NCBI GenBank assembly: GCA_041497115.1
Contig: JBGQFW010000006.1
Coordinates: 5,698 to 69,697, forward strand
DNA: 64,000 bases
Reading direction: 5' to 3'
DNA from: Candidatus Methylomirabilia bacterium
GTDB lineage: Bacteria > Methylomirabilota > Methylomirabilia > Rokubacteriales > CSP1-6
Both the position numbers and the translations under genes were made by a program. The notes below the pieces were generated by a model, which was given only the letters and a program-made list of their open reading frames with translations, was not told the origin of the DNA and ran no database searches. This document shows, in pieces, positions 241-48,240 of the stretch (position 1 is its first letter; each line of letters starts with the position of its first letter).

Positions 241-1466
<1,226 letters not shown>

Positions 1467-1470
<4 letters not shown>

Positions 1471-2926: not shown

Positions 2927-3001
2927 GCGGCGCCCGCGTCCCCTGACCGTCTCCGTTCGTCCACTCTAGCCGCCGCCGCGCGCGCGTGCGATCGTGCGCG
3001 C

Positions 3002-3388: not shown

Positions 3389-3390
3389 CG

Positions 3391-28507: not shown

Positions 28508-29775
28508 GCCCACCGGCTCATGAACTCGTCCACGCACTCCGTGACGTAGCCCCGCTCGCGCTCGCCGATGGCGTGATGGTTCCCGATGAAGAACGACTGC
28601 CGCATGATCAGCTCGGCATTGGTCAGCGGCCCGGCGATCCGGTGGTCGAACAGCGCGATGGCCGGCTGGTCCCGGAAGTTGCCGGCCATGATGGGCCGCG
28701 TCTCGATCCCCTTGGACTCCAGAAATGTCACCAGGTCGGCGCGGGTGAACGGCGCGTCCGGCCGCACGGTGATCGGGTAGCCGAACCATACCGAGCGCGA
28801 GCCGCCGCCCTCGCGGCCGGGGCACTCGATGAGCCAGTGGGCGTACTTGCGCAGCGCGGCGTTCCAGTCGTCCACGTTCTCGCGCCGGATCCGGATGAAC
28901 TCCTCCAGCTTCGGCACCTGGTGGATGCCGAAGGCGCCCTGGACCTCGGTCGGCCGCAGGTTGTAGCCGAGGTTCACGAACAGGAAGCGGTCGTCGATGC
29001 CGGGGTTCGGCACGTCGGGCTTGACCTGCACGTCGCGCGTCCAGCCGTGGGCGCGCAGCGTGCGGGCGAGGTCGGCGACGCGGTCGTCGTCGGTGACGAC
29101 CATGCCGCCCTCGATCGTGCTGATGTGGTGCGAGAAGTAGAAGCTGAAGGTGCCCATCGTGCCGAAGGTGCCGACCGTGCGCCCCTCGAAGCGCGCGCCG
29201 TGCGCCTCGCAGGTGTCCTCGACGATCAGCAGCCGATGGCGGCGGGCGAGGTCGCCGAGCGCGCGCATGTCGCAGGGGTTGCCGAGCAGGTGGACCGGCA
29301 TGATCGCCCGCGTGCGCGGCCCCACCGCGCGCTCGGCGGCGGCGGGATCGAGCGTGAACGTCTCGAGATCGACGTCCACCAGCACCGGCACCAGCCCCAC
29401 GTTGACGAGCGGGAAATAGGTCGTGGACCACGCTACCGCCGGCACCAGCACCTCGTCGCCCGGCGCGAGCCGGCCGGCGAACGCCGGGTTCACGAGCACG
29501 GCCGCCGCGATGAGGTTCGCCGAGGAGCCCGAGTTGACCATCACGGCGTGGCGCGCGCCGACGTACCCCGCCCACAGCGCCTCGAACCGCCGCACCCGGT
29601 CGCCCATCGTCACGCGCAGGCTGAGCAGCGCGTCGATCGCCTCGTTCACCTCGTCGGCGCCGTAGGAGGGCACGTGCAGCGGCAGCCGGACGCCGGCGGG
29701 GGGCTCGGGCAGGGCGAAGTACGACCGCACGAGCTCGCGGATGCGCGCGGCCAGGGCCGGGCGGGAGTCAGCCAT
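28504..29775 (-). CDS. ColD/E1-type PLP/PMP-dependent NDP-4-keto-6-deoxyhexose 3-dehydratase (DegT superfamily)
   Basis: 423 aa, with [28 protein letters not shown] and WFGY. The active-site segment [14 protein letters not shown] has His where DegT aminotransferases have the Schiff-base Lys. Confidence 0.85.
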
Positions 29776-29796: not shown

Positions 29797-31326
29797 CTAC
29801 GAGGCGGCTCCGCCCGCGAGCTTCCGCCACCGCCGCCGCGTGAACACGACGTCGACGAACCACTTCGCGTAGCGGGTCTCCTCCGTCCCGGTGACGACGG
29901 CCCGCACCAGCGCCCGCACGACCCGCCACGGGCGCAGGCAGAAGGACAGCACGTAGAAGCTCGCGAACATCGACAGCATCGTCCAGTAGAGCCGGCGCGT
30001 GGACACACGGTCGGCGTAGGACGGCGCCTTGGCCGTGTAGAAATCCATCGGGGAGACGAAGAACGCGTCGTCGAGCTCGATCTTGCCCTCGCGCTGCAGC
30101 CGCCGGAACAGCTCGGACCCCGGGTACGGCACGAACTTGGAGACCGCGATGTCGTGCACGCCCAGGCGGGCGAGCGTGAGGACCAGCCCGAGCGACTGGC
30201 GCAGGGTGGCCGGCGTGTCGTCGGGGAAGCCGATCACGATGAAGCACGAGAGCTTGAGCCCGCGGCGGACGGCCGCGCGCACGGCGTCCTTCATGTGGTC
30301 GAGGTCCACCTGCTTCTTGACGATCTTGAGGATCTCCGGCGAGCCGCTCTCCGGCGCGAACGCCAGCGCCCGGCACCCCGACCGGTAGAGGAGGTCGGCC
30401 ACCTCGGCGTCGAAGACCTCGGCGCGCGTGCCGATCGGCATCTGCCAGGTGATGCCGAGGTTGCGCGCGATGAGCTCGCGGCAGAAGTCGACCACCCACT
30501 GCCGCTTCACGATCGCGGTGAGGTCCTGGAAGTCGAAGTTCGTCGTCCCGTACTCGCGGAGGTACCCCTCCATCTCGTCGGCGAGCCGCTGCGGGTTGCG
30601 GGCGATCCACCGCTGCGTCCACATGCCGGGATTCGAGCAGAACGTGCACTGGAACGGGCACCCGCGGGTGCCCAGGATCGGCATCGAGCGGCCGAGGTTG
30701 ACGCCGTTGGTCTGGTGGCGGTCGATGTACTCGCGGATCGGGAACGACGCCCAGTCGGGCACCGGGATCGCGTCCACGTCGCGCCGGCGGGCCGACAACC
30801 CGGTCTTCACGACGCCGCCGCCCTCGCGGAACGCGATCCCCTTCACGCTCCCCAGCGGCCGCCCGTCGGCGTGGGCGCGCAGCAGCTCGACGAACGTCTC
30901 CTCGCCCTCCCCCAGCACCACGACGTCGAAGGGGCTGACGCCGAGCACGTGGTCGGGCACGGCGGTGCCGTGCTCGCCGCCCAGCACCATCAGGACGTGC
31001 GGGAACTTCTCGCGCACCGCATGCGCCACGCGGTTGGTCACCGGCCAGAGCGTGCTGAACATGCAGGTGATGCCGACCACGCGCGTGTCGGGGTGGATGC
31101 GTCGGACTACCTCGCCGAGGGGCAGCCCCTGCACCATGAAGTCGCCCCGGTCGGGATAGGTCGAGACCTCGTCGAGGGCCTCCCCGGTGGCGTCGATCAC
31201 CCGGTACGGGAGGCCGACCGCCTTGAGCGTGCCGGCGATGTAGGCCAGCCCCAGGGGCGGGTTCGGCGTGTGCATCTGAAGACCGGAAAAGCTCTTGATT
31301 CCTGGGGGATTGATGAGGGTGATCAT
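29797..31326 (-). CDS. B12-binding-domain radical SAM enzyme (class B)
   Basis: 509 aa. It has an N-terminal cobalamin-binding-like domain and the canonical GTRGCPFQCTFC (CX3CX2C) motif. The C-terminus contains a hydrophobic segment. Confidence 0.9.
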   Translation of the reverse strand: MITLINPPGIKSFSGLQMHTPNPPLGLAYIAGTLKAVGLPYRVIDATGEALDEVSTYPDRGDFMVQGLPLGEVVRRIHPDTRVVGITCMFSTLWPVTNRVAHAVREKFPHVLMVLGGEHGTAVPDHVLGVSPFDVVVLGEGEETFVELLRAHADGRPLGSVKGIAFREGGGVVKTGLSARRRDVDAIPVPDWASFPIREYIDRHQTNGVNLGRSMPILGTRGCPFQCTFCSNPGMWTQRWIARNPQRLADEMEGYLREYGTTNFDFQDLTAIVKRQWVVDFCRELIARNLGITWQMPIGTRAEVFDAEVADLLYRSGCRALAFAPESGSPEILKIVKKQVDLDHMKDAVRAAVRRGLKLSCFIVIGFPDDTPATLRQSLGLVLTLARLGVHDIAVSKFVPYPGSELFRRLQREGKIELDDAFFVSPMDFYTAKAPSYADRVSTRRLYWTMLSMFASFYVLSFCLRPWRVVRALVRAVVTGTEETRYAKWFVDVVFTRRRWRKLAGGAAS

Positions 31327-35206: not shown

Positions 35207-36401
35207 CCACCACGTCCTCGTAGATCTTCTTGGTCGCGCGCGCGCAGCGGTCCCACCGGAAGCGCGCCTCCACCCGCTCGCGGTTCAGCGCGCCGAGCTT
35301 CTGGCGCAGCGGCGCGTCGGCCAGCAGCTGGGCCAGCCGCCGCGCGGCGGTCTCGCGGTCGTCGGGATCGACGAGGACGCCGCCCTCGCCGTCCGCCAGC
35401 AGCTCGGGGAGCGAGCCGCGGTTGGAGGCGACGACGGGCAGCCCGCACGACATCGCCTCGGCCACGCTGAAGCCGAACCCCTCCAGCGACGACGGGAAGA
35501 ACAGCACGTCGGCGAGGTTGTAGTAGTCCACCTTCTCGCGCTCGGGGACATACCCGGTGAAGACCACGCGCCGCGCCTCCACCAGATCGGCGGCGCGGCG
35601 GCGGAGCGGCTCGAGCAGCGGGCCGGCGCCGCACACCAGCAGGCAGGCGTCCGGCCGCTCGGCGGCGACGAGGCGCCAGGTGTCGAGCAGGCCGAACAGG
35701 TTCTTGCGCGCCTTGAGCCCGCCGAGAAACAGCGCGACGGTCCGCCCCTCGAGCCCCCAGCGCCGGGCGAGCGGCGCCGGGCGCGGCCCCGGCGCGAAGC
35801 GCGCGTCCACGCCGTAGGGCACGACCGCGAACCGCTCGGCGGGCACGCCGAGCTCGGCCACCGCCTGGCGCACCGCGAACTCGCTGCCGACCACCACCCG
35901 CTCGACCGCGCGCATCACACGTCCCTCGATCAGCGGGTTGAGCCAGTGGGGATCGAGGTGGTGGTGGTGGGCGACGATCGGCACGTCGAGCCGGTAGCGG
36001 CGGCGGGCCAGCAGCGCGGCGGGGCCGATGTAGCGCAGCGAGTGGACGCGCAGGAAGTCGAACGGCGTCGCGTCCCACACGCGCTTGATCGCCGGCGGCA
36101 GCACGAGCGGCGCCACCGGCCACCGCAGCCCGCGGCCGATCGGCAGCCGGTGGATCGTCCAGTTGGCGACGCCGGCGGGGTAGCGCTTGTGGCGGGCCAG
36201 CAGGATGTCGAAGTGGACCCCGAGCGCGGCGACTCGCTGCAGGAGCTCGCGCTCGAACGTTTCCCCGCCCGACGTCGTCTCCGGATCGATGCCGCAGTGG
36301 GGGGAGCAGCCTCTCAGAGCGCGTATCCCAGGCGGCGCAGCACCGGCTCCTCGATGGCGGTGATCAGCGCCGCGTCCTCGGCGGCCAGCCGGGTGCGCCA
36401 C
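35172..36401 (-). CDS. glycosyltransferase family 4 (start codon uncertain)
   Basis: The GT4 core is clear (SGGETFEREL..., GGLKARKN, FPSSLEGFGFSVAEAMSCGLPVV). No ATG, GTG or TTG lies in frame between 36317 and about 36120. The nearest canonical start is GTG at 36401, an 88-nt overlap with the sulfotransferase. Confidence 0.75.
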   Translation of the reverse strand: MAHPAGRRGRGADHRHRGAGAAPPGIRALRGCSPHCGIDPETTSGGETFERELLQRVAALGVHFDILLARHKRYPAGVANWTIHRLPIGRGLRWPVAPLVLPPAIKRVWDATPFDFLRVHSLRYIGPAALLARRRYRLDVPIVAHHHHLDPHWLNPLIEGRVMRAVERVVVGSEFAVRQAVAELGVPAERFAVVPYGVDARFAPGPRPAPLARRWGLEGRTVALFLGGLKARKNLFGLLDTWRLVAAERPDACLLVCGAGPLLEPLRRRAADLVEARRVVFTGYVPEREKVDYYNLADVLFFPSSLEGFGFSVAEAMSCGLPVVASNRGSLPELLADGEGGVLVDPDDRETAARRLAQLLADAPLRQKLGALNRERVEARFRWDRCARATKKIYEDVVDEWRRRRAPAR

Positions 36402-37288
36402 TTCTCGTTGCGGTTCTCGAGCCGCTCCGGCACGCGGGCCATGATCTCGGGCGACACCGGCAGCCCGGCGAAGCTGAACAGCGTCTCCAGCGTGCCGCGC
36501 GGGTCCTGACAGAGCGTCTCGTAGCGCACGTGCAGCACCGGGAGCCGCAGCCGCTCCTCCACCTCGAACGCGTAGGCGAGCGCGTCGCGCCACTGCAGCG
36601 CATGCTGCTCGAGCGGGTTGTCGCGCAGGAGCTCGCGCCAGCGCGGGGGCTTGACGCCGGGAAACGGGTCCTCGCGCTCGCGCCACGGCTTGAAGCGGTC
36701 CTCCGGCTCGCCGGGCTGGGCGTGGCCCCAGATGAGCGAGTGCACCACCGCGCGGCCGTCGCGGATGATGTGCACGAACACCGCGTCGGGGAAGACGGCC
36801 TTGAGGAAATCCAGCCGCACCGTGTTGTTGGGGCTCTTGTTCAGCACGCGCGGCTTGCCCTCCCGCCACGCCTGGAACGCGAACCGCCGGTGCAGCCGCT
36901 CGATCTCGGCGGGCGTGGCGTCGGCGGCGGAGCGGACGTAGTCGCCGTTGGCGTAGTCGAAGTAGCCGTGCGGCTGGAGGATCGGGTTCGCCTCGGAGAG
37001 GTTGGCCAGGTCCGGGTGCGTCGCGGCGAGGTGCATGGAGATCGTCGTCCCCGAGTGCGGCATGCCGTACATCAGCACGGGCCGCTCGGCCCGGGCGTCG
37101 CGGCCGGCGGTGCGGCGCCAGAGCTCGTAGCGGAGCTCGTAGGCGAGCGTCTTGGCCGCGCGCGCCGGGAACTTCACGAACCAGCCGGCGGTGCCGAAGT
37201 CGCGAGTGAGCACGCGCGGGTCCACCTCGTTCAGCCGCGTGCGGTTGCCGAGCATCTCTTGCAGCCGGAGCTCCGTCATCCTCGCCAC
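36314..37288 (-). CDS. PAPS-dependent sulfotransferase
   Basis: 324 aa. It has a 5'-PSB-like motif MPHSGTT and a 3'-PB-like segment VHIIRDGRAVVHS. Confidence 0.8.
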   Translation of the reverse strand: MARMTELRLQEMLGNRTRLNEVDPRVLTRDFGTAGWFVKFPARAAKTLAYELRYELWRRTAGRDARAERPVLMYGMPHSGTTISMHLAATHPDLANLSEANPILQPHGYFDYANGDYVRSAADATPAEIERLHRRFAFQAWREGKPRVLNKSPNNTVRLDFLKAVFPDAVFVHIIRDGRAVVHSLIWGHAQPGEPEDRFKPWREREDPFPGVKPPRWRELLRDNPLEQHALQWRDALAYAFEVEERLRLPVLHVRYETLCQDPRGTLETLFSFAGLPVSPEIMARVPERLENRNEKWRTRLAAEDAALITAIEEPVLRRLGYAL

Positions 37289-37312: not shown

Positions 37313-38083
37313 CTAGCCGTGGGACGCCACGATCTCGATGTTCGGGTTCACGCCCGCCGCGCGGTAGTAGAGGCGCACCAGCGGCCACAGCGGGCCGCCC
37401 ACCCGGCGCGGCTCGCGATCCTCCAGCACGCGCAGGACGCGGCCCCCCGCCGCCGTGACGAGCGCCCGCGTCTCGCCGAGCGTGAGCGGGCGGAGCGTGT
37501 CCAGGAACGCGGCCGGGCGGCCGCGGGCGCTCACCCAGGCGCGCGCCGCCCACCGGGGCAGCCCGGGGATCCAGAAGATCTTGTAGTGGCCCTCCTGGCA
37601 GGAGAAGCGGTGCGGCGCGTGGAGGTAGAGCGCGCCGTGCGGCCGGAGCACCCGCAGCATCTCGCCGACCGCGCGGCCGGCGTCGGCGACGTGCTCGAGC
37701 GTCGAGTAGCAGTGCACGACGTCGAAGGCGCCGCGCGCGAACGGCAGCGCCTCGGCGACGGCCCGCGCCACGCGCGACGGTCCCAGCCGCCGTCCGGCGA
37801 TCGCCGTCGCCTCGCCGGAGGCGTCCACACCCCATACCGCGGCGCCGGCCGCGCCGGCGGCGGCGGCGAAGCCGCCGGTGCCGCAGCCGACGTCGAGCAG
37901 CCGCAGGCCGCGCAGCGGGCGACCCAGCGCTTGTTGCAGCCGCGCCACCCGTCCGCGCTCCTGGGCGCCGTCGTCGAGGCGCGCCGTCACGTGCTCGCGC
38001 CAGCCGGGAATGCCGAGCGTGTCGCGGTAGTAGCGCGTGTAGTACGCCTCCAGCGCCGCCCGCACGTCCCCCCCGCCCGTCAC
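37313..38083 (-). CDS. class I SAM-dependent methyltransferase
   Basis: GTG at 38083 overlaps the upstream stop (GTGA). 256 aa, with LLDVGCGTGG and LRVLRPHGALYLHAP. Confidence 0.8.
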   Translation of the reverse strand: MTGGGDVRAALEAYYTRYYRDTLGIPGWREHVTARLDDGAQERGRVARLQQALGRPLRGLRLLDVGCGTGGFAAAAGAAGAAVWGVDASGEATAIAGRRLGPSRVARAVAEALPFARGAFDVVHCYSTLEHVADAGRAVGEMLRVLRPHGALYLHAPHRFSCQEGHYKIFWIPGLPRWAARAWVSARGRPAAFLDTLRPLTLGETRALVTAAGGRVLRVLEDREPRRVGGPLWPLVRLYYRAAGVNPNIEIVASHG

Positions 38084-39117
38084 ACCGCCACCTCCCGCCC
38101 GAGCGCGGCCGCCGCCACGCGACGGGCGCCGCGGCCGTCCACCAGCCGCTGGCCGGCCCCGCTCATCGCGCGGCGGGTGGCGGCGTCTCCGAGCAGCGCG
38201 GCCAGCGCCTCGGCCAGCCGCACGGCGAAGTCGGCGGCGTCGGGCGACGGCAGCGCGCGCACGGCGCCGCCGGCCGCGAAGCCCGCGAGGTTCGCGCGCT
38301 GATTGTCGGCCACGGCGGTGGCGAGGGCGGGGCATCCCGCCCACGCCAGCTCGAGGAGCGTGAGACCGGCGGCGGTCACCGCCAGGTCGGCCTCGAGGAA
38401 CAACGAGCACACGTCCGGCGGGTCGTGGCGCACGCGCACCGTCCGGCGGCAGCGGCCGGCCGCCGTCGCCGCCGGCGCCGGATCGGCGAACGGCCCGACG
38501 AGCGCGTCGACGACGAAATCGCCGGGCGCGGCGTCGAGCGCGGCCAGCAGCGGGGCGAGCACCCCCGGCACCTCGCCGCCCCCGAGGGTGACCACGACGG
38601 CGGCGACGCGCTCGCGCAGCCGGCGCTCGGGCCGCGTCCAGCACTGCGGGCGCAGCGGCGCGTACGCCGGGCCGAGGAGGAACCGTGTGTCACCGTGACG
38701 CGAGCGGTGCGGCCGCTCGGCGGCGCCCGGCGCGGGATCGACCACCACGTGGCACGGCGACGGCGTCGCGGCCAGATCGTCGAACGCGACCAGTGTCAGG
38801 CCGGTCGCCCGCAACCGCTCCAGCGCGTCGTCGCTGGCGCGATAGCTGTCGATCACGAGGGTGGCGGCGCCCGTCGCGCCGGCGGCGGCGCACAGCCGCT
38901 CGAGCGCCGGCGCGTCCCACGCCGGCCAGCCGTCGATCGTCACCGCCGTCCGGCCGGCCGCCTCCACGCGCGTGCGGAAGGGGCCGGCGGCGGGCGCGGC
39001 CACCGACGCCAACGCGCCCTCCGCCTCGAGCGCGGCCGCCAGCGCGAGCGCGCGGCCGAGATGGCCCAGCCCGATGTCGGGGCCGCCGTCGGCGGCGAGG
39101 AGGACGCGCTCAGCCAT
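38080..39117 (-). CDS. pseG: PseG-like UDP-2,4-diacetamido-2,4,6-trideoxyhexose hydrolase
   Basis: 345 aa. It has ADGGPDIGLGHLGRALALA at the N-terminus and a GT-B-like C-terminal half. It sits adjacent to the GNAT and NeuB homologs. Confidence 0.7.
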   Translation of the reverse strand: MAERVLLAADGGPDIGLGHLGRALALAAALEAEGALASVAAPAAGPFRTRVEAAGRTAVTIDGWPAWDAPALERLCAAAGATGAATLVIDSYRASDDALERLRATGLTLVAFDDLAATPSPCHVVVDPAPGAAERPHRSRHGDTRFLLGPAYAPLRPQCWTRPERRLRERVAAVVVTLGGGEVPGVLAPLLAALDAAPGDFVVDALVGPFADPAPAATAAGRCRRTVRVRHDPPDVCSLFLEADLAVTAAGLTLLELAWAGCPALATAVADNQRANLAGFAAGGAVRALPSPDAADFAVRLAEALAALLGDAATRRAMSGAGQRLVDGRGARRVAAAALGREVAV

Positions 39118-39589
39118 CGCGCCAGGCCATCGCCGTCGCGGTCGCGCCGCCGACGCGGCGCTCGCCGGCCGCCACGAAGCCGGCGCGCTCGAAGGCCGTC
39201 CGCGACCGGGGGTTGTCGGCGCGCACGAGGGCGACCACCGGCGCGCGGCGGCCGGCGGCGCGGAACGCCGCGACCGCCGCGCGCAGCGCCGCCGGTCCGA
39301 GCCCGTGGCCGCGCGCCTCGGGGGCAAGCGCCACGCTCACGAGCGCCTCGCCGGCGGCGGCGTCGAAGCGCACGTAGCCGACGTCGGCGCCGCCCTCGGC
39401 GGCGATCATGTAGATCGGCGCCGTCTCGTCGGTGAGCCGCGCCGCCAGCCAGCGCTCGTGGCGGTCGAAGGCGATCGGCTCGGCGCTGAACGACACGCGG
39501 CGGACGGTCTCCTCGTTTCTCAGCTCCCAGAGCCGCCGCGCGTCCGCGGCGGTCGCCCGGCGCAGCGACACGGCGGACGCCTCACGCAT
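39110..39589 (-). CDS. GNAT N-acetyltransferase (PseH-like by position)
   Basis: 159 aa. It has the GNAT motif A region (RGHGLGPAAL) and ...NPRSRTAFERAGF. It lies between the pseG-like and neuB-like genes. Confidence 0.7.
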   Translation of the reverse strand: MREASAVSLRRATAADARRLWELRNEETVRRVSFSAEPIAFDRHERWLAARLTDETAPIYMIAAEGGADVGYVRFDAAAGEALVSVALAPEARGHGLGPAALRAAVAAFRAAGRRAPVVALVRADNPRSRTAFERAGFVAAGERRVGGATATAMAWRDG

Positions 39590-40631
39590 AGTCCGCCGCG
39601 GTCAGCGGCGCCTGCGCCGAGAGCGGACGGGCGGCGCGCCGCCCGACGACGCGGTCCCACGCGCTGGGCGGCAGGCCGGGCTCGAGAGCGCCGCAGCGGA
39701 GGATGACGAGGTTGTCGGGGCCGAGCGGCTCGCCCGAGGCCACGTCGCGGGCGACGAAGATCGCGCGGCGGGCGAAGCGCCGCAGCTCCTGCTCGACCGG
39801 CTGCACCGTCTTGTCGCCGCTGCCGAGCGCGCTCTCGACCTCGCGGACCTTGCGCACGAGCAGCGCCAGCTCGTCGGGCTCGACGGCGAACGCGTGGTCG
39901 GGGCCGGGCAGCCGGTTGCTCAGCGTGAAGTGCTTCTCGAGCAGGTTGGCCCCGAGCGCGACCGCCGCGAGCGGCCCCACCAGCGGATCGCGGGAGTGAT
40001 CGGACAGCCCCACCGGCACGCCGAACGCCGCCTTCATCGTCACGATCGCGCGCAGGTTGAGCGCGTCGAGCGGCGCCGGGTAGGCGGCGGTGCACTGCAT
40101 GAGCGCCAGCGGTCGTCCCGCCATCGCGGTCACCGTCTCGCCCACCTCGTCGAGGTCGGCGGTGCCGGTGGAGACGATCAGCGGCTTGCCGCGGGCGGCC
40201 GTGTAGCGCACGAGCGGCAGGTGCGTCATCTCATAGGAGGCGATCTTGTAGGCGCGCACGAGCGGGTCGAGCCGGTCCACCGACTCCTCGTCGAACGCGG
40301 AGGCCAGGAAGTCGATCGAGCGGGAGGCCGAGTGGTCGGCCAGCGCGGGCAGCCACTCGTACGGCATCTCCATGTCGGCGATGACGTCGTAGATCGACCG
40401 GTCGAGCTTGAGGTACTCGGACCGCCCGGCGCCGCGGGCGTAGAGCTTGCTCGCCCGGAAGAGCTGAAACTTGACGGCGTCGGCGCCCGCCTCGGCGGCG
40501 ACGTCGATGAGCCGCCGCGCCTGCTCGAGGCGGCCGTCGTGATTGGACCCCGCCTCGGCGATGACGTAGCACGGCTGCCCGTCGCCGATCCGCCGCCGCC
40601 CCACGCCGACCGTCGCCACCACAGCGCTCAC
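39582..40631 (-). CDS. pseI: NeuB-family nonulosonic acid synthase (pseudaminic acid synthase-like)
   Basis: GTG at 40631 overlaps the upstream stop (GTGA). 349 aa, with YVIAEAGSNHDG, DAVKFQ, YKIASYE, LSDHS and a C-terminal SAF/AFP-like domain. Confidence 0.85.
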   Translation of the reverse strand: MSAVVATVGVGRRRIGDGQPCYVIAEAGSNHDGRLEQARRLIDVAAEAGADAVKFQLFRASKLYARGAGRSEYLKLDRSIYDVIADMEMPYEWLPALADHSASRSIDFLASAFDEESVDRLDPLVRAYKIASYEMTHLPLVRYTAARGKPLIVSTGTADLDEVGETVTAMAGRPLALMQCTAAYPAPLDALNLRAIVTMKAAFGVPVGLSDHSRDPLVGPLAAVALGANLLEKHFTLSNRLPGPDHAFAVEPDELALLVRKVREVESALGSGDKTVQPVEQELRRFARRAIFVARDVASGEPLGPDNLVILRCGALEPGLPPSAWDRVVGRRAARPLSAQAPLTAADYA

Positions 40632-41917
40632 GGCTGGCGGAACACCGGCTCGACGACGCGGCCCTCCAGGCGGCGGGCGGCGTCCCCCGCCCGCACCGCG
40701 TCGGCGACGATGCCGAGCGCGGTGCCGTACACGCCGAGGGTCGTCTCGACGTCCCGATCGTCGTGGGAGAACGACACGTTCATCCCGCCGCCCAGCAGGA
40801 TGCCGCGCTTGAGGCACTCTTGTAGAAACAGCGTCTTGAGGATCGCCGGATCGCCGCCGCCGGGATCGGCGACCGTGATCACGGTGCGCGGCGGATAGCC
40901 GACGCACGCCAGGTGGCGCTCGAGCCCGGCCGCGCGGGCGAGCGCGTTGAACCCCTCCTGCAGCCGGCCGCCCTGCCGCCACAGGTGCGCGATCACCGGC
41001 TTGTCGCACATCTCGCGCACCGTCGCCAGCGCCGCCGCCAGCGAGACGGCCTCGCCGCCGAAGGTGAACGAGAAGAAGATCCGGTCGAAGACCTCCATGA
41101 GGTCGCGGCGCCCGACCACCGCCGCGATGGGAAAGCCGTTGCCGAGCGCCTTGCCGAAGCAGGCCAGGTCGGGAATCACGCCGAACAGCTCCTGGGCGCC
41201 GCCGAGCGCCAGGCGGAATCCGGTGACGATCTCATCGAACACCAGCAGCGCCCCCTGGCGATGGGCGAGGTCGCGCACGCCCTCGAGGAAGCCGGGGGCG
41301 GGCGGCACGATGCCGACCGGCTCCATGACGACGGCGGCCACGCGACCGGGATGCTCGGCGAACACGCGCTCGAGGCTGGCCAGGTCGTTGTAGGCGAACG
41401 TCACCGTGAGCTCGCGCACCGCCTTCGGGATGCCGTCGGCGCGCGTGGTCGTGGCGATGTACCAGTCCTGCCAGCCGTGGTAGCCGCAGCAGGCGATGAC
41501 GTCGCGGCCGGTGAGGGCGCGCGCGGCGCGCACCGCGCCGGCGGTCGCGTCGGAGCCGTTCTTGCCGAAGCGCACCATGTCGGCGCCGGGGATGAGCTCG
41601 GTCAACGCCTCCGCCACCTCGACCTCGAGTGGATGCGCCGTCGAGAACGACACGCCCTCGGCGGCCTGGCGGGTGACGGCCTCCACGACGGCCGGGTAGG
41701 CGTGGCCGAGGATCACCGCGCCGAGCGCCATCGGGTAGTCGATGTACTCGTTGTCGTCGACATCCCAGACGTGGCTGCCGCGGCCGCGGGCCAGGAACGC
41801 CGGTCCCACCCCCTCGACGTAGGCGTTCCGCCCCTTGCTGAACGTCTGCGTGGCCGACGGGATGACAGCCAGCGCCCGCTTGAGATACGCGCTCGACCGC
41901 TCGCCCTTGCGCGCCAT
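40628..41917 (-). CDS. class III aminotransferase (glutamate-1-semialdehyde 2,1-aminomutase-like)
   Basis: 429 aa, with FSKGRN, GSHVWDVDDNEYIDY, LVFDEIVTGFR and DLACFGKALGNGFP (PLP Lys). Confidence 0.85.
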   Translation of the reverse strand: MARKGERSSAYLKRALAVIPSATQTFSKGRNAYVEGVGPAFLARGRGSHVWDVDDNEYIDYPMALGAVILGHAYPAVVEAVTRQAAEGVSFSTAHPLEVEVAEALTELIPGADMVRFGKNGSDATAGAVRAARALTGRDVIACCGYHGWQDWYIATTTRADGIPKAVRELTVTFAYNDLASLERVFAEHPGRVAAVVMEPVGIVPPAPGFLEGVRDLAHRQGALLVFDEIVTGFRLALGGAQELFGVIPDLACFGKALGNGFPIAAVVGRRDLMEVFDRIFFSFTFGGEAVSLAAALATVREMCDKPVIAHLWRQGGRLQEGFNALARAAGLERHLACVGYPPRTVITVADPGGGDPAILKTLFLQECLKRGILLGGGMNVSFSHDDRDVETTLGVYGTALGIVADAVRAGDAARRLEGRVVEPVFRQP

Positions 41918-43173
41918 CACGCCTCCCCTGCCGCGCCCGCGCGCATCGTGCCGGCGACGAGGTCGAGGAGACGCGCCGACGCGCGCCCGTCGACCGCTCC
42001 CAGGAACTTCGCCAGGTACGCCTCCCGCGCCGCGCCGTCGACGGCCCAGTCGCCCAGGCGCATGCGCGGCAGCTGCTCGATCGTCTCGCCGACGCCCAGC
42101 GTGGCGGCCACGCCCTTGAACTGGAACAACATCCCCTCCTCGCGCCCGAACAGCCGCGGGTGCCACGGCTGGGTCGTGCCCATCTGGTCCAGCTCCGGCG
42201 CGATCGAGAGGCTGGGCACGCCGACCGCCACCGCCTCGAGGATCGCGAAGCTGTAGAAGTGGACGCACAGGCCGGCGACGGCGAGCAGCTCGACGATCGT
42301 CGCCGGGTACTGGGTGCGGTCGTACAGCACCTGGTCGGCGACGCGCCGGAGATAGCGCGGCACCGGATCCTTGGCCCGCGCCTTCACCACGAGCAGGGCG
42401 TCGTTGGCGTCGGCGAACTCGCGCACGGCGCGCGTCACGCCGACGTCGTCCCAGCCACGATCCACCAGCCGGACGAGGTCGCCGGCGCTGCTCCGACGCA
42501 GGCGCCACCGTCGCCACGCGCGGTTGCCGCCCGCGTACGCCCAGCGGCTCCACGGCGTCGCTGGATTCGAGTGGAAGGGATAGGGCAGGTAGAGGACGAC
42601 CGGGCGCGCCGCCGGGATCCCGAGCCGCCGCCGGATCTCCTCGGGATCGACCGCGCCGATCTGGTCGAGCTCCGGCATCCCGACCGCGGTCGAGCGCGCG
42701 CGGATCTCCCCCTCGCGCGCGTCGCCGGCGGTCGTGAGCCCGCGGTCGCGGAAGTTGTCGAGCGCGAAGTCCACCCACCAGTCGCTGTGGACGGCCACGC
42801 CGGCCGCCCGCGTGAAGTCCTCGGGGACGAGCTTTCGCCAGAGGTCCCCGGTGAACTGGAGGATCGTCCACGGCACCGCGGCGGCCGCGCGGCCGTCCGG
42901 CTTCTTCTCGATCGCGACGACCGCGTCCACGCCCGCCGCCGCCACCGCATCGAGCAGCGCGGCGCGGCCGGCGTACATGACGATCCGCGGCGTCCCCGCG
43001 CGGAAGCGGGGGGCCCGGTCGGCGGCGGGGAACTCGTAGCCCTTGTGGCCGCGTCGCGCCTGCGCGCCGTCGTGCAGGGCGACGACCTCCATTCCGCGGG
43101 CGAGCGCCGCCTCGACCACCGGCCCCAGCAGCCGGTAGTAGTTGTTCCGGGTGATGACGACGCCGAGCCTCAT
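41917..43173 (-). CDS. hypothetical protein, two-Rossmann-domain (GT-B-like) appearance
   Basis: 418 aa and coding-like, with tight coupling at both ends. No diagnostic motif was recognised. The C-terminal half (LLVVKARAKDP...VHFYSFAILEAVAVGVPSLSI) resembles capsule/teichoic-type transferase folds. Confidence 0.55.
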   Translation of the reverse strand: MRLGVVITRNNYYRLLGPVVEAALARGMEVVALHDGAQARRGHKGYEFPAADRAPRFRAGTPRIVMYAGRAALLDAVAAAGVDAVVAIEKKPDGRAAAAVPWTILQFTGDLWRKLVPEDFTRAAGVAVHSDWWVDFALDNFRDRGLTTAGDAREGEIRARSTAVGMPELDQIGAVDPEEIRRRLGIPAARPVVLYLPYPFHSNPATPWSRWAYAGGNRAWRRWRLRRSSAGDLVRLVDRGWDDVGVTRAVREFADANDALLVVKARAKDPVPRYLRRVADQVLYDRTQYPATIVELLAVAGLCVHFYSFAILEAVAVGVPSLSIAPELDQMGTTQPWHPRLFGREEGMLFQFKGVAATLGVGETIEQLPRMRLGDWAVDGAAREAYLAKFLGAVDGRASARLLDLVAGTMRAGAAGEA

Positions 43174-44522
43174 GCCGCCGCCGCCATGCGCACGAGCCCC
43201 TCGCGCGCGAAGCGGTCCACCCAGCCGCGGACCTGCTCGAACGGCAGCCGCACGAACGCGGCGATCTCGCCCACCGAGTTCCGGCCGTCGATGCACGCCA
43301 TGATCAGGTCCATCGCGGCGTTGAGCTCCGGCTGCTCGCGCCAGTCCACCCACAGCCCGTACTGCGACAGGAAGATCGGCCCCGTGTAGAGCGGCACCGG
43401 CACCACGTCGTCCGCCTGCGCCGGCCGCGCCGGCAGGCGGTCGCGCAGCCGCAGCCCTCCGCGCTCGCGCGCGCAGCCCGCCGGCTCCAGGCTCTCCAGG
43501 CCGTCCACGATGTCCCGCACGATCTCGAACCCCTCGGTGATGCCGGGCCAGTCCAGCCGCGCGGGAATGTCGCGGTGGGAATGGTAGTCCTCGAACGGGC
43601 CGCGGTTGAGCGCGATCGAGGGGATCCAGAGATTCGCGCTCGACGTCACCGCCTCGTCGTTCATGATGCCGTCCTCGCGGAAGGGCAGCGCCGTGAAGTC
43701 CGAGCCGAACCGCTTGGTGAGGACCTGGGTCGCCACCTCGTCGATCAGCGAGTCGCCGCGCAGCGATCTCTGCAGCCGCACCCGCCCCGGCCGCCCCCAG
43801 AACTCGGTGTAGACGCTGTACACGATGTCGTCCGCCAGCTCCGGGTGGTTGGCCAGGAACGCGATGGTGCCGATCGTCTCGGGCAGGAACGTGAACACGT
43901 ACGTGAAGAACCGCGGCGTCGCCTTCAGGTGCGCGTAGAGCGCGTGGGCGACCGCCGTCCCGCTCAGGCTGTCGTTGCACTGGTAGGGGTGGCAGATGTC
44001 GCTGCTGACGAGGATCGTCTGCGGCGAGCGGCCGGGCAGCCGGACGTAGCCGACCCGGAAGACGTCGTCGTAGTAACGGGCGTCCACCCTCACGTGATAC
44101 TCGGCGTCGCGATCGAGCCGCGCGACCAGATCGAAGGGCAGGTTGAATCCCCAGTCCAGCCGTCCGTAGTAGCGGAAGTTCCACACGAGCAGCGCCGGCC
44201 GCGTCGCGTCCGCGTAGACGTGCCGCCGCAGCTCGTCGTAGGAGACGACCGCGTCGACCGGCAGCGAGCCGCTCGACACGCACAGCGGCTCGGTGGCCGT
44301 CGAGACGATCTCCCGCCCGCCGCACGCGATCGAGGCCGACCGGAGGTCCCACTTGCGTGGCAGCCGCCAGGTCCAGGCGGCGCTGCCGGTGGGATAGCCG
44401 TCGATCACGAGGTCGGGAACGAACTCCGCCTTGATGATGTCCAGGGCCCGGTCGAGGTCGGGGCTGCAGATCGACCGGTTGAGCGGATGCAGTCGCTCGA
44501 TGAAGCGCCGCATGTCGCTCAT
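43170..44522 (-). CDS. DUF4910/aminopeptidase-like domain protein with C-terminal winged helix
   Basis: 450 aa. It shows M28-like remnants (CHPYQCNDSLSG, FLPETIGTIAFL, HSHRD) and a C-terminal wHTH-like region (GRNSVGEIAAFVRLPFEQVRGWVDRFAREGLV). Confidence 0.7.
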   Translation of the reverse strand: MSDMRRFIERLHPLNRSICSPDLDRALDIIKAEFVPDLVIDGYPTGSAAWTWRLPRKWDLRSASIACGGREIVSTATEPLCVSSGSLPVDAVVSYDELRRHVYADATRPALLVWNFRYYGRLDWGFNLPFDLVARLDRDAEYHVRVDARYYDDVFRVGYVRLPGRSPQTILVSSDICHPYQCNDSLSGTAVAHALYAHLKATPRFFTYVFTFLPETIGTIAFLANHPELADDIVYSVYTEFWGRPGRVRLQRSLRGDSLIDEVATQVLTKRFGSDFTALPFREDGIMNDEAVTSSANLWIPSIALNRGPFEDYHSHRDIPARLDWPGITEGFEIVRDIVDGLESLEPAGCARERGGLRLRDRLPARPAQADDVVPVPLYTGPIFLSQYGLWVDWREQPELNAAMDLIMACIDGRNSVGEIAAFVRLPFEQVRGWVDRFAREGLVRMAAAA

Positions 44523-45286
44523 CGGTTGCCCTTCCCGGAGCCCGCGAACTTCTCGTTGCGCGTGAGGCCGGCGTTGAGCGTCGCCAGCTCGGGATGCGCG
44601 CGCAGGAGCGCGAGCACCTCGGCCATTCCGAACGGGCGCGTCCCGTCCGGGCTCAGCGCGGCGTAGACCGCCCGCACGAACTCGAGATCGCCGGCGGTAT
44701 CGACGGTCCAGCGCAGCGCGGAGAGGTCCTCGGCGTGGCGCACGTTGACGAGGCCGAACCGCTCGGGTCGGTCCCAGATGTACGGCGTCACGTGCTCGCG
44801 GTCGGCGGGATGGCGCGCCTCGCGCCACGCCGCCTCCAGCGCCTCGCGCGAGAACACCTCGGTGTCGAGGCCGTCGGGATAGGTCGGCGGGTGCACGTTG
44901 CTGACGTAGCCGACGCGTCCCCCGTGGGCGACGAACTCGGCGACGACGCGCGCCGAGACCGCCGGATCGAGGAGCGGGCAGTCCGGCGTGATCCGCACGA
45001 TGGCGTCGGCGGGATGGGCGCGCACCGCCGCCTGGAAGCGGTCGAGGACGTCGTCCTCGCTGCCCCGCACCCACGGGAGCCCGGCCGCCACCGCGAACCG
45101 CACGACCGGCTCGTCGCGCGGCTGGTCGGTGGTGGCGATCACGATCTCGTCGAGGCCGGGGATCGCGCGCGCCCGCGCGACGACGTGCGCCAGCATGGGA
45201 CGGCCGGCCACCTCCGCCAGCGCCTTGCCGGGCAGGCGGCTCGAGCCGAGGCGGACCTGCACGACGGCCACGCAGCGCAGCGCCAT
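44519..45286 (-). CDS. SpsF/FlmC-type cytidylyltransferase-domain protein
   Basis: 255 aa. VAVVQVRLGSSRLPGKAL is the acylneuraminate cytidylyltransferase-family N-terminus. Confidence 0.8.
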   Translation of the reverse strand: MALRCVAVVQVRLGSSRLPGKALAEVAGRPMLAHVVARARAIPGLDEIVIATTDQPRDEPVVRFAVAAGLPWVRGSEDDVLDRFQAAVRAHPADAIVRITPDCPLLDPAVSARVVAEFVAHGGRVGYVSNVHPPTYPDGLDTEVFSREALEAAWREARHPADREHVTPYIWDRPERFGLVNVRHAEDLSALRWTVDTAGDLEFVRAVYAALSPDGTRPFGMAEVLALLRAHPELATLNAGLTRNEKFAGSGKGNR

Positions 45287-46272
45287 CAGACGGTGATCCA
45301 GCGGCGCCCGGCCGCCGAGGCCTTGGCCGCTTCCACCAGCCGGAGGGCGGCGAGCGCCTCGCCCGCCCCGATCGTCGGCTGCTCGCGCCCCTCGAGGCAC
45401 GCGACGAGGTGCCGCATCTCCTCCACGAACATCTCGTTGTGGTCGAAGTCGATCGGCTCGCGAAACCCCTCCCAGCGGTCGCGCTCCTCGCCGAAGACCG
45501 TCACCCGCCCCTCGATGTAGTCGCACACGATGACGCCCCGCTCGCCGATGACCTCGCAGTCGCGCCGGTAGGAGCGCTGCAGGTAGTCCAGGTGGAGCTG
45601 GGCGATCGGGCCGCCGGCGAACCGCAGCGTCACCTCCGCGAAGTCCTCCACGTCGATCGCCAGCTCGGAGAGGCGGCCGGCCGTGCAGAAGACGTCGGTG
45701 ACGGGGCCGAACATCCAGCGCAGATAGTCGAACTCGTGGATGGCGTCGAGGAGGATCCCGCCCCCGTGGGCGGCGTGGGCGCGATACGTCTGGCGGTAGT
45801 CCGCGCCCGGCTTCCAGAACGGCAGGTGGAAGCCGCACTGGGCCCGGACCGCGAGGACGCGGCCGATCCGCCCCTCGTCCACCAGCGCCTTGACGCGCCG
45901 GAGCGGGCGGAAGAAGCGCAGGTTGGCGCCGACCAGCACGCGGCAGCCGCGCGCGTCGGCCTCCGCGAGCAGGTCGGCGACGCCCTCGGAGCGCGCCGCG
46001 ATCGGCTTCTCGACGAACAGGTGGGTGGCCCAGCCGAGCGTGAGGCGGGCCAGCTCGAGATGGGACGACGGCGGCGTGCAGATCACCACCGCGTCCGGCT
46101 TGTGCGCGCCGGCGCCGGCGAGGGCCGGCAGGGGCTCGAGGCCGAGGCCGGCCGCCGCCCCCGCCAGCCGCTCGCCGTCGGCGTCGAAGCCGAGGACGTC
46201 GTGGCCGAGCGCGCGCAGGTTGCGCGCGTGGCGCTGGCCGATCGACCCGAGCCCGACGACCAGGAACCGCAT
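45286..46272 (-). CDS. Gfo/Idh/MocA-family NAD(P)-dependent oxidoreductase
   Basis: 328 aa, with MRFLVVGLGSIGQRH, VVICTPPSSH and HLFVEKP. Confidence 0.85.
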   Translation of the reverse strand: MRFLVVGLGSIGQRHARNLRALGHDVLGFDADGERLAGAAAGLGLEPLPALAGAGAHKPDAVVICTPPSSHLELARLTLGWATHLFVEKPIAARSEGVADLLAEADARGCRVLVGANLRFFRPLRRVKALVDEGRIGRVLAVRAQCGFHLPFWKPGADYRQTYRAHAAHGGGILLDAIHEFDYLRWMFGPVTDVFCTAGRLSELAIDVEDFAEVTLRFAGGPIAQLHLDYLQRSYRRDCEVIGERGVIVCDYIEGRVTVFGEERDRWEGFREPIDFDHNEMFVEEMRHLVACLEGREQPTIGAGEALAALRLVEAAKASAAGRRWITV

Positions 46273-46283
46273 GCGGGCCGGCG

Positions 46284-47978
46284 CTACACGTCGGCGCGGG
46301 TGGCCCCGCGCACGCCGCGCCGGGCGGTCTGGCTGTCGCCGGTGTGGGGATGGCGCACCGTGTTCTGCCCGCCCAGCTCGCTGACCGCGCCCCACGACAG
46401 CTCGATGATCTCCTCGTCGGGAAGGTCGCTGAAGTTCGTGCGCACCTCCTCGCCCTGCTCGCCCAGCCGCAGGAAGTACTGCTCGATGATGTCCTCGTCG
46501 GCCGGCCCCTTCTCGCCGGTGACCGCCTTCCGGATGAGCCCCTTGTCGAGGGCCAGCTGCCAGAACGACGTGCCCGGGTACGCCGTCGTGAAGAAGAACA
46601 CCTCCGGCTTCAGGTTCACCTTGCGGCAGAACTCGACGGTCTCGCGCACGGTGTCGGCGGTCTCGCCGGGCGAGCCGATCATGAACGAGCAGTCGGCGTA
46701 GCCGAGCACCCGCTGCGTCTCCAGGATGGCGATCTCCATCTTCTCGAGCGTCTGCCCGCTCTTGTCGATGTTCTTCAAGATCGTCGGGCTGGCCGACTCC
46801 ACGCCGTAGCCGGCCTGGCGCATCCCGACCTCGTAGCCGAGCTCGAGCATGTGCGGGCGTCCCTCGCGCCGCGCGCGCAGCACGTCGTCGGCCACGATGT
46901 TGGTCCGGCAGGTTCCGCCCCACATCACCTCGAAGCCGGCCGTCCGCTTGCGCTCGCGGAGCTCGGTGAAGAGCTCCAGCGCCCAGCGGTAGTCGGTCAT
47001 CAGGAGGTCGTCCAGGAAGTGGATGTACACCGCGCCGTAGCGCTCCCTGATGTACTGCATCTCGTCCACGACCTCCCGCGGGCTCCGCAGCCGGTAGGTC
47101 TTGCCGAGATACGCCGCATAGCAGTAGTCGCACGCGCGCGACGCGTACGGACAGCCGCGCGAGGCGATCATGGACACCGAGTACTGCCCGGTCTGGACCG
47201 GCGCGCCGTCGACCCACTTCGTCTGCCAGTTCAGGTGGCCGACGGGATTCAGCTTGTAGACCTCGTCCTCGGCCCACCGCGAGCGCAGCGGCCAGGGCAG
47301 CCCGTCGAGCCCCGCCTCGCGCGACTGCACGGAGGCGCGCAGCCCGTTGTCGCGCACCGTCCACTCCCCCGGCCGGAGGACGTGCCGGTACGCCACCCCC
47401 TTCACCCCTTCGAGCGTCGCCCCCGCCTCGAGCCGGTGGAGCAGCTCCGAGACGGTCACCTCGCCCTCTTCCTGCACGACCGCGTCGACCGGCAGCCGCT
47501 GCACCATGAACGCCGGCATCGAGGAGGCGATGCCGCCCCCGAGCACGATCGGCACGTCGGGATGCACCCGCCGGCAGATCGTCGCGATCCGCTTGATCCA
47601 CGCGTACTGGGTGATGATCCCGCCCAGCCCGATCACGTCGGGGCGCGCGCTCTGGAGCTTCTCGACGATGCGGGTCTCGACCCACTTCACGAACGCCTCG
47701 GGCGAATCTTTCACGGGCTGGCGGCGCTCGGCGTTGAGGTCGAGCACGTCGACGGTGTGGCCGTCCATCGCGACGACCGCCCCGACGTACCCCTGCCCGA
47801 TCGGCATGATGTTCGGATACGACCACTCGCGGATCGGCGCGTTGATCAGGAGCACGCGCAGCCCCCCGTCGCGGGGCGCGAAGCGCGCCTCGCCGGCCTG
47901 GGTGGTGATGCGCGGCGCCGCCGAGTCCGCGATCCGCCCGTGCGCGTCGAACCGCTCGTAGAAGCGCGATGCCGTCAC
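46284..47978 (-). CDS. B12-binding-domain radical SAM enzyme with non-canonical cysteine spacing
   Basis: 564 aa. It has an N-terminal B12-binding-like domain (VLLINAP..., IGLGGIITQ). The cluster motif reads ASRGCPYASRACDYC (CX6CX2C). Confidence 0.85.
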   Translation of the reverse strand: MTASRFYERFDAHGRIADSAAPRITTQAGEARFAPRDGGLRVLLINAPIREWSYPNIMPIGQGYVGAVVAMDGHTVDVLDLNAERRQPVKDSPEAFVKWVETRIVEKLQSARPDVIGLGGIITQYAWIKRIATICRRVHPDVPIVLGGGIASSMPAFMVQRLPVDAVVQEEGEVTVSELLHRLEAGATLEGVKGVAYRHVLRPGEWTVRDNGLRASVQSREAGLDGLPWPLRSRWAEDEVYKLNPVGHLNWQTKWVDGAPVQTGQYSVSMIASRGCPYASRACDYCYAAYLGKTYRLRSPREVVDEMQYIRERYGAVYIHFLDDLLMTDYRWALELFTELRERKRTAGFEVMWGGTCRTNIVADDVLRARREGRPHMLELGYEVGMRQAGYGVESASPTILKNIDKSGQTLEKMEIAILETQRVLGYADCSFMIGSPGETADTVRETVEFCRKVNLKPEVFFFTTAYPGTSFWQLALDKGLIRKAVTGEKGPADEDIIEQYFLRLGEQGEEVRTNFSDLPDEEIIELSWGAVSELGGQNTVRHPHTGDSQTARRGVRGATRADV

Positions 47979-47982
47979 CTCG

Positions 47983-48240
47983 TCACCTCCCGATCCGTTT
48001 CTCGAGATAGGCCGCGATCTGGTTGACCGACTTCAGGCCGTCGACGTCCTCGTCGGGGATGGCCACGTCGTACGTCTCCTCCAGCGCGAGCAGCATCGCC
48101 GAGTGGTCGAGGGAGTCGAGGCCCAGGTCGAACAGGGACTGGTCGTGATCTCCCGGGCTCTCGACCGTGGGCGCGGCGTCCTTCACGGCCTTCAGGACGG
48201 CGGCGACGAGATCCTCGTCGGGCATGGCTGGCTCCCTCAC
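47983..48240 (-). CDS. acyl carrier protein
   Basis: 80-85 aa (GTG at 48240 in a GTGA overlap, or ATG at 48225). The phosphopantetheine site is LFDLGLDSLDHSAML. Confidence 0.8.
   Translation of the reverse strand: MREPAMPDEDLVAAVLKAVKDAAPTVESPGDHDQSLFDLGLDSLDHSAMLLALEETYDVAIPDEDVDGLKSVNQIAAYLEKRIGR

Follow-up and report, generated by a model that had tools for sequence, protein, structure and literature searches.

Can a member of the superfamily of radical S-adenosylmethionine (SAM) enzymes keep its function when the cysteines that should hold its [4Fe-4S] cluster are spaced further apart than usual and, if so, on what does it act? The question is raised by a gene at 46284..47978 on the minus strand of a 64,000-nucleotide stretch of DNA (the window) from Candidatus Methylomirabilia bacterium (GenBank assembly GCA_041497115.1, contig JBGQFW010000006.1, positions 5,698 to 69,697). 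Its product, 564 amino acids from a GTG start, combines a B12-binding domain with a radical SAM core and carries the motif CX6CX2C where the canonical motif is CX3CX2C. An initial annotation of the window had noticed this spacing and, with the gene lying just behind one for an acyl carrier protein (ACP), had suggested action on an ACP-tethered acyl group or on an acylated amino sugar. We find that the spacing is inherited, and we consider it likely that the gene encodes an add-on, class-B-type radical SAM enzyme of a pseudaminic acid pathway, whose substrate is a pathway intermediate or cytidine monophosphate (CMP)-pseudaminic acid and not the neighbouring ACP. The argument draws on the domains of the protein, the motif and its ancestry, its conservation and its gene neighbourhoods; cobalamin use, substrate and reaction are predicted from these.

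Domains and cysteines of the protein

Two Pfam domains score above their curated thresholds, an N-terminal B12-binding (Rossmann-like) domain at residues 58-179 (47442..47807, minus strand; PF02310, 65.5 bits against a cut-off of 32.1) and, fused to it, a radical SAM core at residues 271-451 (46626..47168, minus strand; PF04055, 49.3 bits against 29.5), and Pfam finds nothing else in the 564 residues at E <= 0.01. This is the architecture of class B, and the reading frame, the domain matches, homologs at 65-99% identity and the fold matches described below all agree with the earlier description of the product as a B12-binding-domain radical SAM protein. Within the B12-binding domain the stretches GGIITQY, LGGGI and EGE are invariant in the family alignment, and the GVESxSP and FMIGSPGET motifs of the radical SAM core are conserved in the family and outgroup alignments alike. 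The product is accordingly annotated here as a predicted class-B-type radical SAM enzyme in which a cobalamin-binding Rossmann domain precedes a radical SAM barrel. Third codon positions of the gene have a G+C content of 0.97, in a window of ~73% G+C. An Rfam scan of the window detected no cobalamin riboswitch and no other family, a result that, for the riboswitch, says little either way about cobalamin.

The protein has seven cysteines (135, 276, 283, 286, 357, 430 and 451), and its sole cysteine triad is 276/283/286, in GCPYASRACDYC. The predicted cluster motif, C276-X6-C283-X2-C286 (CPYASRACDYC; 47121..47153, minus strand), is identified from the sequence and from alignment with canonical relatives; no CX3CX2C occurs elsewhere in the 564 residues, so that the initial annotation was right to name this the only plausible [4Fe-4S] motif, with six residues between the first two cysteines. 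An auxiliary second iron-sulfur cluster was considered and is unsupported: C135, C357, C430 and C451 are invariant in the family yet not conserved in sister and outgroup sequences.

Conservation of the CX6CX2C motif

The family set comprises 121 proteins, namely the query and its best 120 homologs (73-99% identity) from a set of 5.8 billion proteins. The pattern C-P-Y-x4-C-[DE]-Y-C is uninterrupted in 107 of the 121 and split by an intein in 13; in the last (P0068, 585 amino acids, 80% identical), glycine replaces the second cysteine to give CPYASRAGDYC, a reading that comes from a single sequence on one contig and could reflect either a mistake or an infrequent, inactive allele. Inside the motif A279 and A282 hardly vary, unlike the two residues that they enclose, and mean column identity over the family alignment is 74%. 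A genome scan, with one genome per GTDB species, yielded 32 loci at 65-85% identity, and CX6CX2C is present in all 28 that have an uninterrupted frame. Because the motif is kept across the family proteins and in every one of these uninterrupted loci, the spacing is inherited and a sequencing error is excluded. One locus departs from this pattern. In L031:10780-10900 (Rokubacteria metagenome-assembled genome AR5; G009:C130), a 58-nt deletion between two ATC repeats shifts the frame and takes out exactly ASRGCPYASRACDYCYAAY. Either the gene is a pseudogene here, or assembly or curation has collapsed a site at which alleles with and without the intein coexist.

Origin of the spacing

The origin of the spacing was addressed by searching 1.84 billion representative proteins (50% identity clusters) exhaustively with HMMER. 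Roughly 270 of them match at E <= 1e-30, and the family itself amounts to essentially one full-length representative plus fragments. The nearest proteins outside it, P0123 (54% identity, CFYRCDFC) and P0126 (50%, CPYFCRYC), both have CX3CX2C, as does every further outgroup representative (30-40% identity) in which the motif region is covered; in all, more than 140 outgroup representatives are canonical, the rest of the 150 listed being family fragments. In a MAFFT alignment all seven canonical-motif rows, P0123 and P0126 included, show a 3-column gap between the first and second cysteines, with the three cysteine columns invariant; the gap places the additional residues at A279-S280-R281 (47136..47144, minus strand). 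Since sisters and outgroups are canonical and the cysteine columns line up around the gap, CX6CX2C is best read as a derived insertion of three residues between the first and second cysteines. The initial annotation had proposed to identify the ligating cysteines by alignment; C276, C283 and C286 are the predicted [4Fe-4S] ligands, because all three align with the cysteines of CX3CX2C, and the cysteine signature of the radical SAM superfamily is predicted to be complete, at altered spacing. A HMMER pairing with TokK, which is ungapped, had put Ser280 at the position of the canonical second cysteine; we regard it as an alignment artefact, given that MAFFT with the 54% and 50% sisters aligns all three cysteines. 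The remainder of the region is canonical in the family (the CxYC half with its aromatic residue, GVESxSP, IGSPGET), and, compared with the solved class B enzymes, it has additional conserved extensions of ~40 amino acids at the N-terminus and ~60 at the C-terminus.

An intein at the third cluster cysteine

Thirteen of the 120 best homologs (P0043, P0063, P0069, P0074, P0076, P0079-P0081, P0083-P0086 and P0104; ~930 amino acids) bear an intein of ~345 amino acids with a LAGLIDADG_3 domain. Its junctions fall between CDY and AVAADTPIL at one end and between VISHN and CYAAYLG at the other, directly ahead of the third cluster cysteine, whose codon in the window, where the gene has no intein, is at 47121-47123. 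Because the intein begins with alanine, ends in HN and shows no cysteine in its C-terminal motif region, it appears to resemble the KlbA-like class 2 inteins. The +1 splice nucleophile is the third cluster cysteine itself, a predicted [4Fe-4S] ligand. When proteins are clustered at 50%, an intein-bearing form represents the entire family. Inteins typically occupy functionally critical sites; our literature search on inteins in radical SAM enzymes found nothing relevant.

Distribution and gene neighbourhoods

The 32 loci span more than ten phyla. Carriers include Rokubacteria/Methylomirabilota, Anaerolineales, Nitrospiria, Planctomycetes, Omnitrophota, Terriglobia, Verrucomicrobiota and Gammaproteobacteria, as well as candidate-phyla-radiation lineages, the cultured cyanobacterium Lusitaniella coriacea and a Pacearchaeota (DPANN) archaeon. 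When the window proteins were mapped onto these loci by tblastn, NeuB was found near the radical SAM gene in 25 of the 32, a PseB-like protein in 21, DegT/PseC in 19, CTP_transf_3 in 15, a GFO oxidoreductase in 14, a class III aminotransferase in 13, a PseG-like protein in 10 and GNAT in 7. Seven further loci have, right after the radical SAM gene, one that starts with the NeuA/PseF-like N-terminus MKTLGIIPARKGS (recognised by eye, unscored); altogether a cytidylyltransferase adjoins the radical SAM gene in at least 22 loci, seven of them by eye. The usual order is pseB, pseC, radical SAM, (GFO), cytidylyltransferase, (aminotransferase), neuB, GNAT, pseG, often with pseC directly upstream of the radical SAM gene, and the run of radical SAM, GFO, cytidylyltransferase and class III aminotransferase genes recurs in L002, L003, L005, L013, L014, L018, L026 and L029. 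Of these, L018 is the locus of Lusitaniella coriacea LEGE 07167, which has pseB, pseC and neuB in addition to that run. One locus, L007, apparently holds six pse gene types plus the radical SAM gene, with ~1.6 kb inside the cluster unannotated. The gene is in this sense co-located, as an accessory gene, with pseudaminic acid clusters.

Conservation of the enzyme exceeds that of its neighbours. Across loci the radical SAM protein is 65-85% identical, versus 30-63% for NeuB and 39-66% for PseC, and at the Pacearchaeota locus it is 69% identical versus 30-39% for NeuB, PseC and the cytidylyltransferase. Its occurrence is patchy: six of 14 genomes of the window's genus have it, and none of 27 elsewhere in the family and order. 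This patchiness suggests that the gene is accessory and has spread horizontally. To judge by these neighbourhoods, the CX6CX2C family, uncharacterised and very strongly conserved, belongs to nonulosonic acid clusters of the pseudaminic acid type.

Shorter relatives with the canonical motif (~435-490 amino acids, 33-40% identical) extend the association. Eight were looked up, and five adjoin a NeuB and/or CTP_transf_3 gene; among these, one follows a flagellar operon, one sits between a PseF-PseG fusion and NeuB, and one belongs to a phage-like contig (with integrase and RecT) that has no recognisable sugar gene besides it and the cytidylyltransferase. A sixth stands beside a PseB-like gene only, and the remaining two have an uninformative or other sugar context. 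The CX6CX2C family would thus be a very strongly conserved branch of a larger class B set, most of which is tied to nonulosonic acid clusters. In L036 (5621-7902) and L037 an integrase, RecT and many small open reading frames accompany the radical SAM gene, with CTP_transf_3 ~300 bp downstream of it, and viruses may use such a pair to alter the nonulosonic acids of their hosts; in the cultured phage collection the only match was a 26% identical gene of Streptomyces phage SF3. The 54% identical sister P0123 (L033) adjoins an HNH endonuclease and GNAT. At another short-clade locus (L053:7443-8015) the gene directly after that of the radical SAM enzyme encodes a small protein whose domains are ferredoxin (Fer4_13/15) and pterin-binding-like (DUF4346), a candidate partner that might donate electrons specifically to the enzyme or handle corrinoid.

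The pseudaminic acid array of the window

In the window the radical SAM gene sits in a minus-strand array of ~46 genes that holds homologs of all six pseudaminic acid gene types (pseB, pseC, pseH, pseG, pseI and pseF). Downstream lie its two conserved partners, a GFO/IDH/MocA oxidoreductase (45286-46272, minus strand) and a PseF-type CTP_transf_3 cytidylyltransferase (44519-45286, minus strand), followed, also on the minus strand, by a class III aminotransferase (40628-41920), NeuB/PseI (39582-40622) and GNAT/PseH (39110-39571), all of them recognised by Pfam; the PseG-like gene (38080-39117, minus strand) has no Pfam match and is named from its homolog position and N-terminal motif only. Upstream, on the same strand, are a PseB-like 4,6-dehydratase (Polysacc_synt_2, 50563-51534; PF02719, 335.7 bits) and a DegT/PseC-like aminotransferase (55811-57004; PF01041, 416.5 bits).

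The array also holds a DUF4910 protein, glycosyltransferases, an ABC exporter, genes for synthesis of 3'-phosphoadenosine 5'-phosphosulfate and a sulfotransferase. Because it contains both the sulfotransferase (36314-37288) and a fused ATP-sulfurylase/adenosine-phosphosulfate-kinase (54042-55745), the final glycan is probably sulfated. A 418-amino-acid protein (41917-43173) belongs to no Pfam family; homologs at 35-40% identity directly follow the PseG-like gene in L001 and L015, and others lie in the clusters of L002, L007 and L031, which makes it a candidate nonulosonic acid transferase or other conserved accessory protein. The second B12 radical SAM gene of the window (29797-31275), a paralog that the initial annotation had rightly described as canonical (CPFQCTFC), stands in a module with a DegT aminotransferase (28504-29775), an SDR (27557-28513) and a gene for 231 amino acids (26865-27560). 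Weaker homologs of this paralog (24-27%) and of the 231-residue protein (39-41%) occur in the Planctomycetia and Omnitrophota loci L024 and L027 (~400-4900). Magnetospirillum moscoviense has a radical SAM gene 41% identical to the paralog (L042), located elsewhere in the genome than its nonulosonic acid island; the island itself (G041:C104:1273-5669) has a similar module of DegT, dehydratase, SDR and radical SAM genes, in which the B12 radical SAM protein is more distant.

Proposed function and its alternatives

Conservation of the cysteine triad, the SAM motifs and the B12-binding domain argues for a functional class B enzyme, and with the CxYC half and the SAM motifs canonical, it should still cleave SAM reductively. 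That its substrate is on the pseudaminic acid route is suggested by the recurring position between pseC and the cytidylyltransferase gene, and by the bare pair of radical SAM and cytidylyltransferase genes on the phage-like contig. For the reaction we propose, tentatively and with somewhat less than even confidence, a cobalamin-dependent methylation of an unactivated sugar carbon. In this mechanism the cluster held by C276, C283 and C286 would be reduced and SAM cleaved reductively, a hydrogen would be abstracted from a sugar carbon, and a methyl group would then be placed, in a cobalamin-dependent step, on the unactivated carbon of a pseudaminic-type sugar. The substrate is possibly nucleotide-linked, in which case the enzyme could recognise it by its CMP or uridine diphosphate (UDP) group, just as the class B methylase Fom3 depends on a CMP group on its substrate (PMC8158854). 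The three-residue insertion would bulge a surface loop beside the cluster and leave the type of reaction unchanged, although it might tune the docking of an electron donor. By analogy with OxsB and QueE, radical SAM enzymes that carry insertions there, it most likely reshapes that surface loop only.

Several points weigh against this proposal. The gene order fits UDP-sugar, free sugar and CMP-sugar substrates alike. In the structural model the cluster loop (residues 274-293) falls below a pLDDT of 50. No NCBIfam equivalog reaches its cut-off, and class B enzymes are also capable of ring contraction, cyclisation and, in AprD4 without cobalamin, diol dehydration. In the window genome, moreover, the radical SAM gene is translationally coupled to the ACP gene immediately upstream (47983..48225, minus strand; PF00550, 46 bits, with the serine motif LGLDSLD). 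The ACP stop codon, TGA, is at 47983-47985, four nucleotides (cgag) separate it from the GTG at 47978, exactly the distance first reported, and GGGAGG, the putative ribosome-binding site of the radical SAM gene, lies inside the last ACP codons. KASIII and AAC(3)-like genes stand with that of the ACP directly upstream of the radical SAM gene, and the cluster of one Planctomycetia locus (L016) also has KASIII and AAC(3) genes, so a role on an N-acyl side chain may exist.

This coupling would suit an enzyme that modifies the product of the KASIII/ACP/AAC(3)-like module, either the ACP-tethered acyl group or the N-acyl chain after its transfer to the amino sugar, and the structures of TokK and CysS were, by their titles, solved with pantetheine-bearing substrates; we nevertheless hold this to be improbable. 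Over the 32 fetched loci tblastn (E <= 0.01) detected no ACP at all, and L016 alone has KASIII and AAC(3)-like genes, at a distance of 6-7 kb from that of the radical SAM enzyme. L001 and L031, which are the closest relatives and belong to the same genus, carry a GNAT gene in the ACP's place, and in many loci the flanking pseC upstream and cytidylyltransferase or GFO gene downstream leave no space for one. A different substrate in one lineage is also unlikely for a protein that is 65-85% identical across phyla. The ACP is coupled to the enzyme in the window genome only and is no conserved partner. Action on an ACP-tethered acyl group, as first suggested, is consequently unsupported; the initial alternative of action on the amino sugar matches the pseudaminic context. 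The set of KASIII, AAC(3)-like and DUF4910 genes (48237-50546 and 43170-44522) recurs in L016:15349-19004 and looks like a separate, optional N-acylation module; a 196-amino-acid open reading frame at 49956-50546 has no Pfam match. This ACP/KASIII/AAC(3) module and the radical SAM enzyme probably decorate the same sugar independently of each other.

Other chemistry within the same family and pathway (radical epimerisation, dehydration or deamination, oxidation or rearrangement, with cobalamin unused or used differently) strikes us as unlikely, though by less than the ACP reading. Among PDB sequences AprD4 matches best (E = 6.8e-6); this diol dehydratase works on an aminoglycoside sugar, does not depend on cobalamin, and shows that a B12 domain can persist without it. 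The NCBIfam matches are as weak to methylases as to HpnJ, BchE and the ladderane enzyme, and the GFO oxidoreductase and class III aminotransferase genes that are often nearby suggest redox and amination chemistry in part of the loci. Many loci with the enzyme lack those two genes, however; conservation of the B12-binding domain is strong (65.5 bits, invariant Rossmann motifs), and most characterised class B enzymes are methyltransferases. That the unusual spacing is a sign of degeneracy or of a non-radical protein, be it a pseudoenzyme or a TsrM-like enzyme without reductive SAM cleavage, is very improbable. TsrM is indeed the best Foldseek match, the cluster loop is modelled at low confidence, and L031 has lost the motif through its deletion, but all three cysteines and the CxYC aromatic are conserved in more than 100 sequences, columns of the family alignment are 74% identical on average, and the intein is positioned at the third cysteine. 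Insertions between the first two cysteines are tolerated in active enzymes, QueE (CX14CX2C) being one. OxsB, with CX4CX2C, is another (PMC9204698).

Significance for nonulosonic acids

Flagella, S-layers, capsules and lipopolysaccharide bear nonulosonic acids (pseudaminic, legionaminic and sialic), which influence motility as well as phage and immune recognition. The known pathways to them involve, to our knowledge, no radical chemistry. Full-text literature searches returned nothing that combines 'nonulosonic' with 'radical SAM', and the items combining 'pseudaminic' with 'radical SAM' did not seem relevant by title and abstract; the literature searched thus describes no B12 radical SAM enzyme of a nonulosonic acid pathway. 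The identity of 65-85% across lineages, the pseudaminic-cluster setting and the short relatives beside cytidylyltransferases, phage-like contigs included, together point to a widespread, undescribed modification of nonulosonic sugars. For radical SAM enzymology the family would add a new cluster-loop spacing within class B and a natural intein whose +1 nucleophile is a predicted cluster ligand.

A bolder proposition, which we regard as doubtful, is that the family and its shorter canonical relatives carry out the first known radical SAM step in nonulosonic acid biosynthesis, in which a carbon of pseudaminic acid, or of its UDP- or CMP-form, would be methylated in a cobalamin-dependent manner, with the nucleotide as handle as in Fom3, to give C-methylated or chain-extended ulosonic acids. 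In Magnetospirillum gryphiswaldense, and less abundantly in Methanococcus, mass spectrometry has detected CMP-linked ulosonic acids with a C10 backbone marker, their genes unassigned (PMC8157484; bioRxiv 10.64898/2026.04.20.719630). If the proposition were true, a C-methylating radical SAM enzyme would explain C10 ulosonic acids. In 22 genomes of the genus Magnetospirillum we detected no member of the clade (best identity 28-32%). Strain BB-1 of M. moscoviense has 11 B12 radical SAM genes, at most 30% identical to the clade, and six of these are on a contig with two NeuB and three CTP_transf_3 genes. The link to C10 sugars may hold for B12 radical SAM enzymes in general; for this family it gets no support from orthology.

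Comparison with characterised radical SAM enzymes

An AlphaFold2 model built from a 32-sequence alignment has a mean pLDDT of 81.8 and a pTM of 0.87, and its best Foldseek match is TsrM (E = 2.5e-21), followed by OxsB, AprD4, MgmA, CysS and TokK. With TsrM (6wte), TokK (7kdx), CysS (9n1d) and MgmA/QCMT (9ccb) the family has its two-domain architecture and fold in common (Foldseek E 2.5e-21 to 1e-13, TM ~0.5-0.6), but sequence identity to them is merely 16-21%, and their substrates are peptides, carbapenems or tryptophan, no sugars. The solved class B enzymes that align have CX3CX2C, as in GCPYSCSFC of TokK, whereas the family has CX6CX2C. Its 17 matches to NCBIfam equivalogs are all far under their cut-offs: 36.3 bits versus 500 for the AprD4 family (NF033070), 87 versus 481 for BchE, 93 versus 578 for HpnJ and 94 versus 360 for the ladderane-lipid model and, among methylases, 92 versus 575 for Sden_1168, 76 versus 600 for PhpK, 37 versus 700 for KedN5 and 29 versus 500 for the TsrM type. 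These scores would place the family outside every characterised class B subfamily.

Spacing variants from CX4 to CX11 are recorded in RadicalSAM.org, where the B12-binding enzymes form Megacluster-2-1 and CX6CX2C is listed for the DUF5131 group only (Megacluster-5-2; PMC9477430). That group, although it has the same spacing, is an unrelated subgroup without a B12-binding domain, and the window protein has such a domain and no Pfam DUF5131 match. On the side of substrates, Fom3, a class B C-methyltransferase, methylates an sp3 carbon of CMP-linked 2-HEP-CMP (PMC8158854), and the family often adjoins cytidylyltransferase genes; GenK, another class B C-methyltransferase, acts on an aminoglycoside sugar. 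The analogy to these two substrates is one that we infer, the P-methylase-type models scoring 76-92 bits versus cut-offs of 575-600. AprD4 (6fd2), a radical SAM diol dehydratase of apramycin biosynthesis, acts like the proposed enzyme on an amino sugar and has, as seen in the alignment, a non-canonical CX3CX3C motif, but here the altered spacing is on the other side of the second cysteine. In OxsB (5ul4), also a B12-binding radical SAM enzyme, the extra residues lie, as in this family, between the first and second cysteines (PMC9204698); it differs in having one such residue where the family has three, in catalysing a ring contraction in oxetanocin synthesis, and in the further domains of its 744 amino acids.

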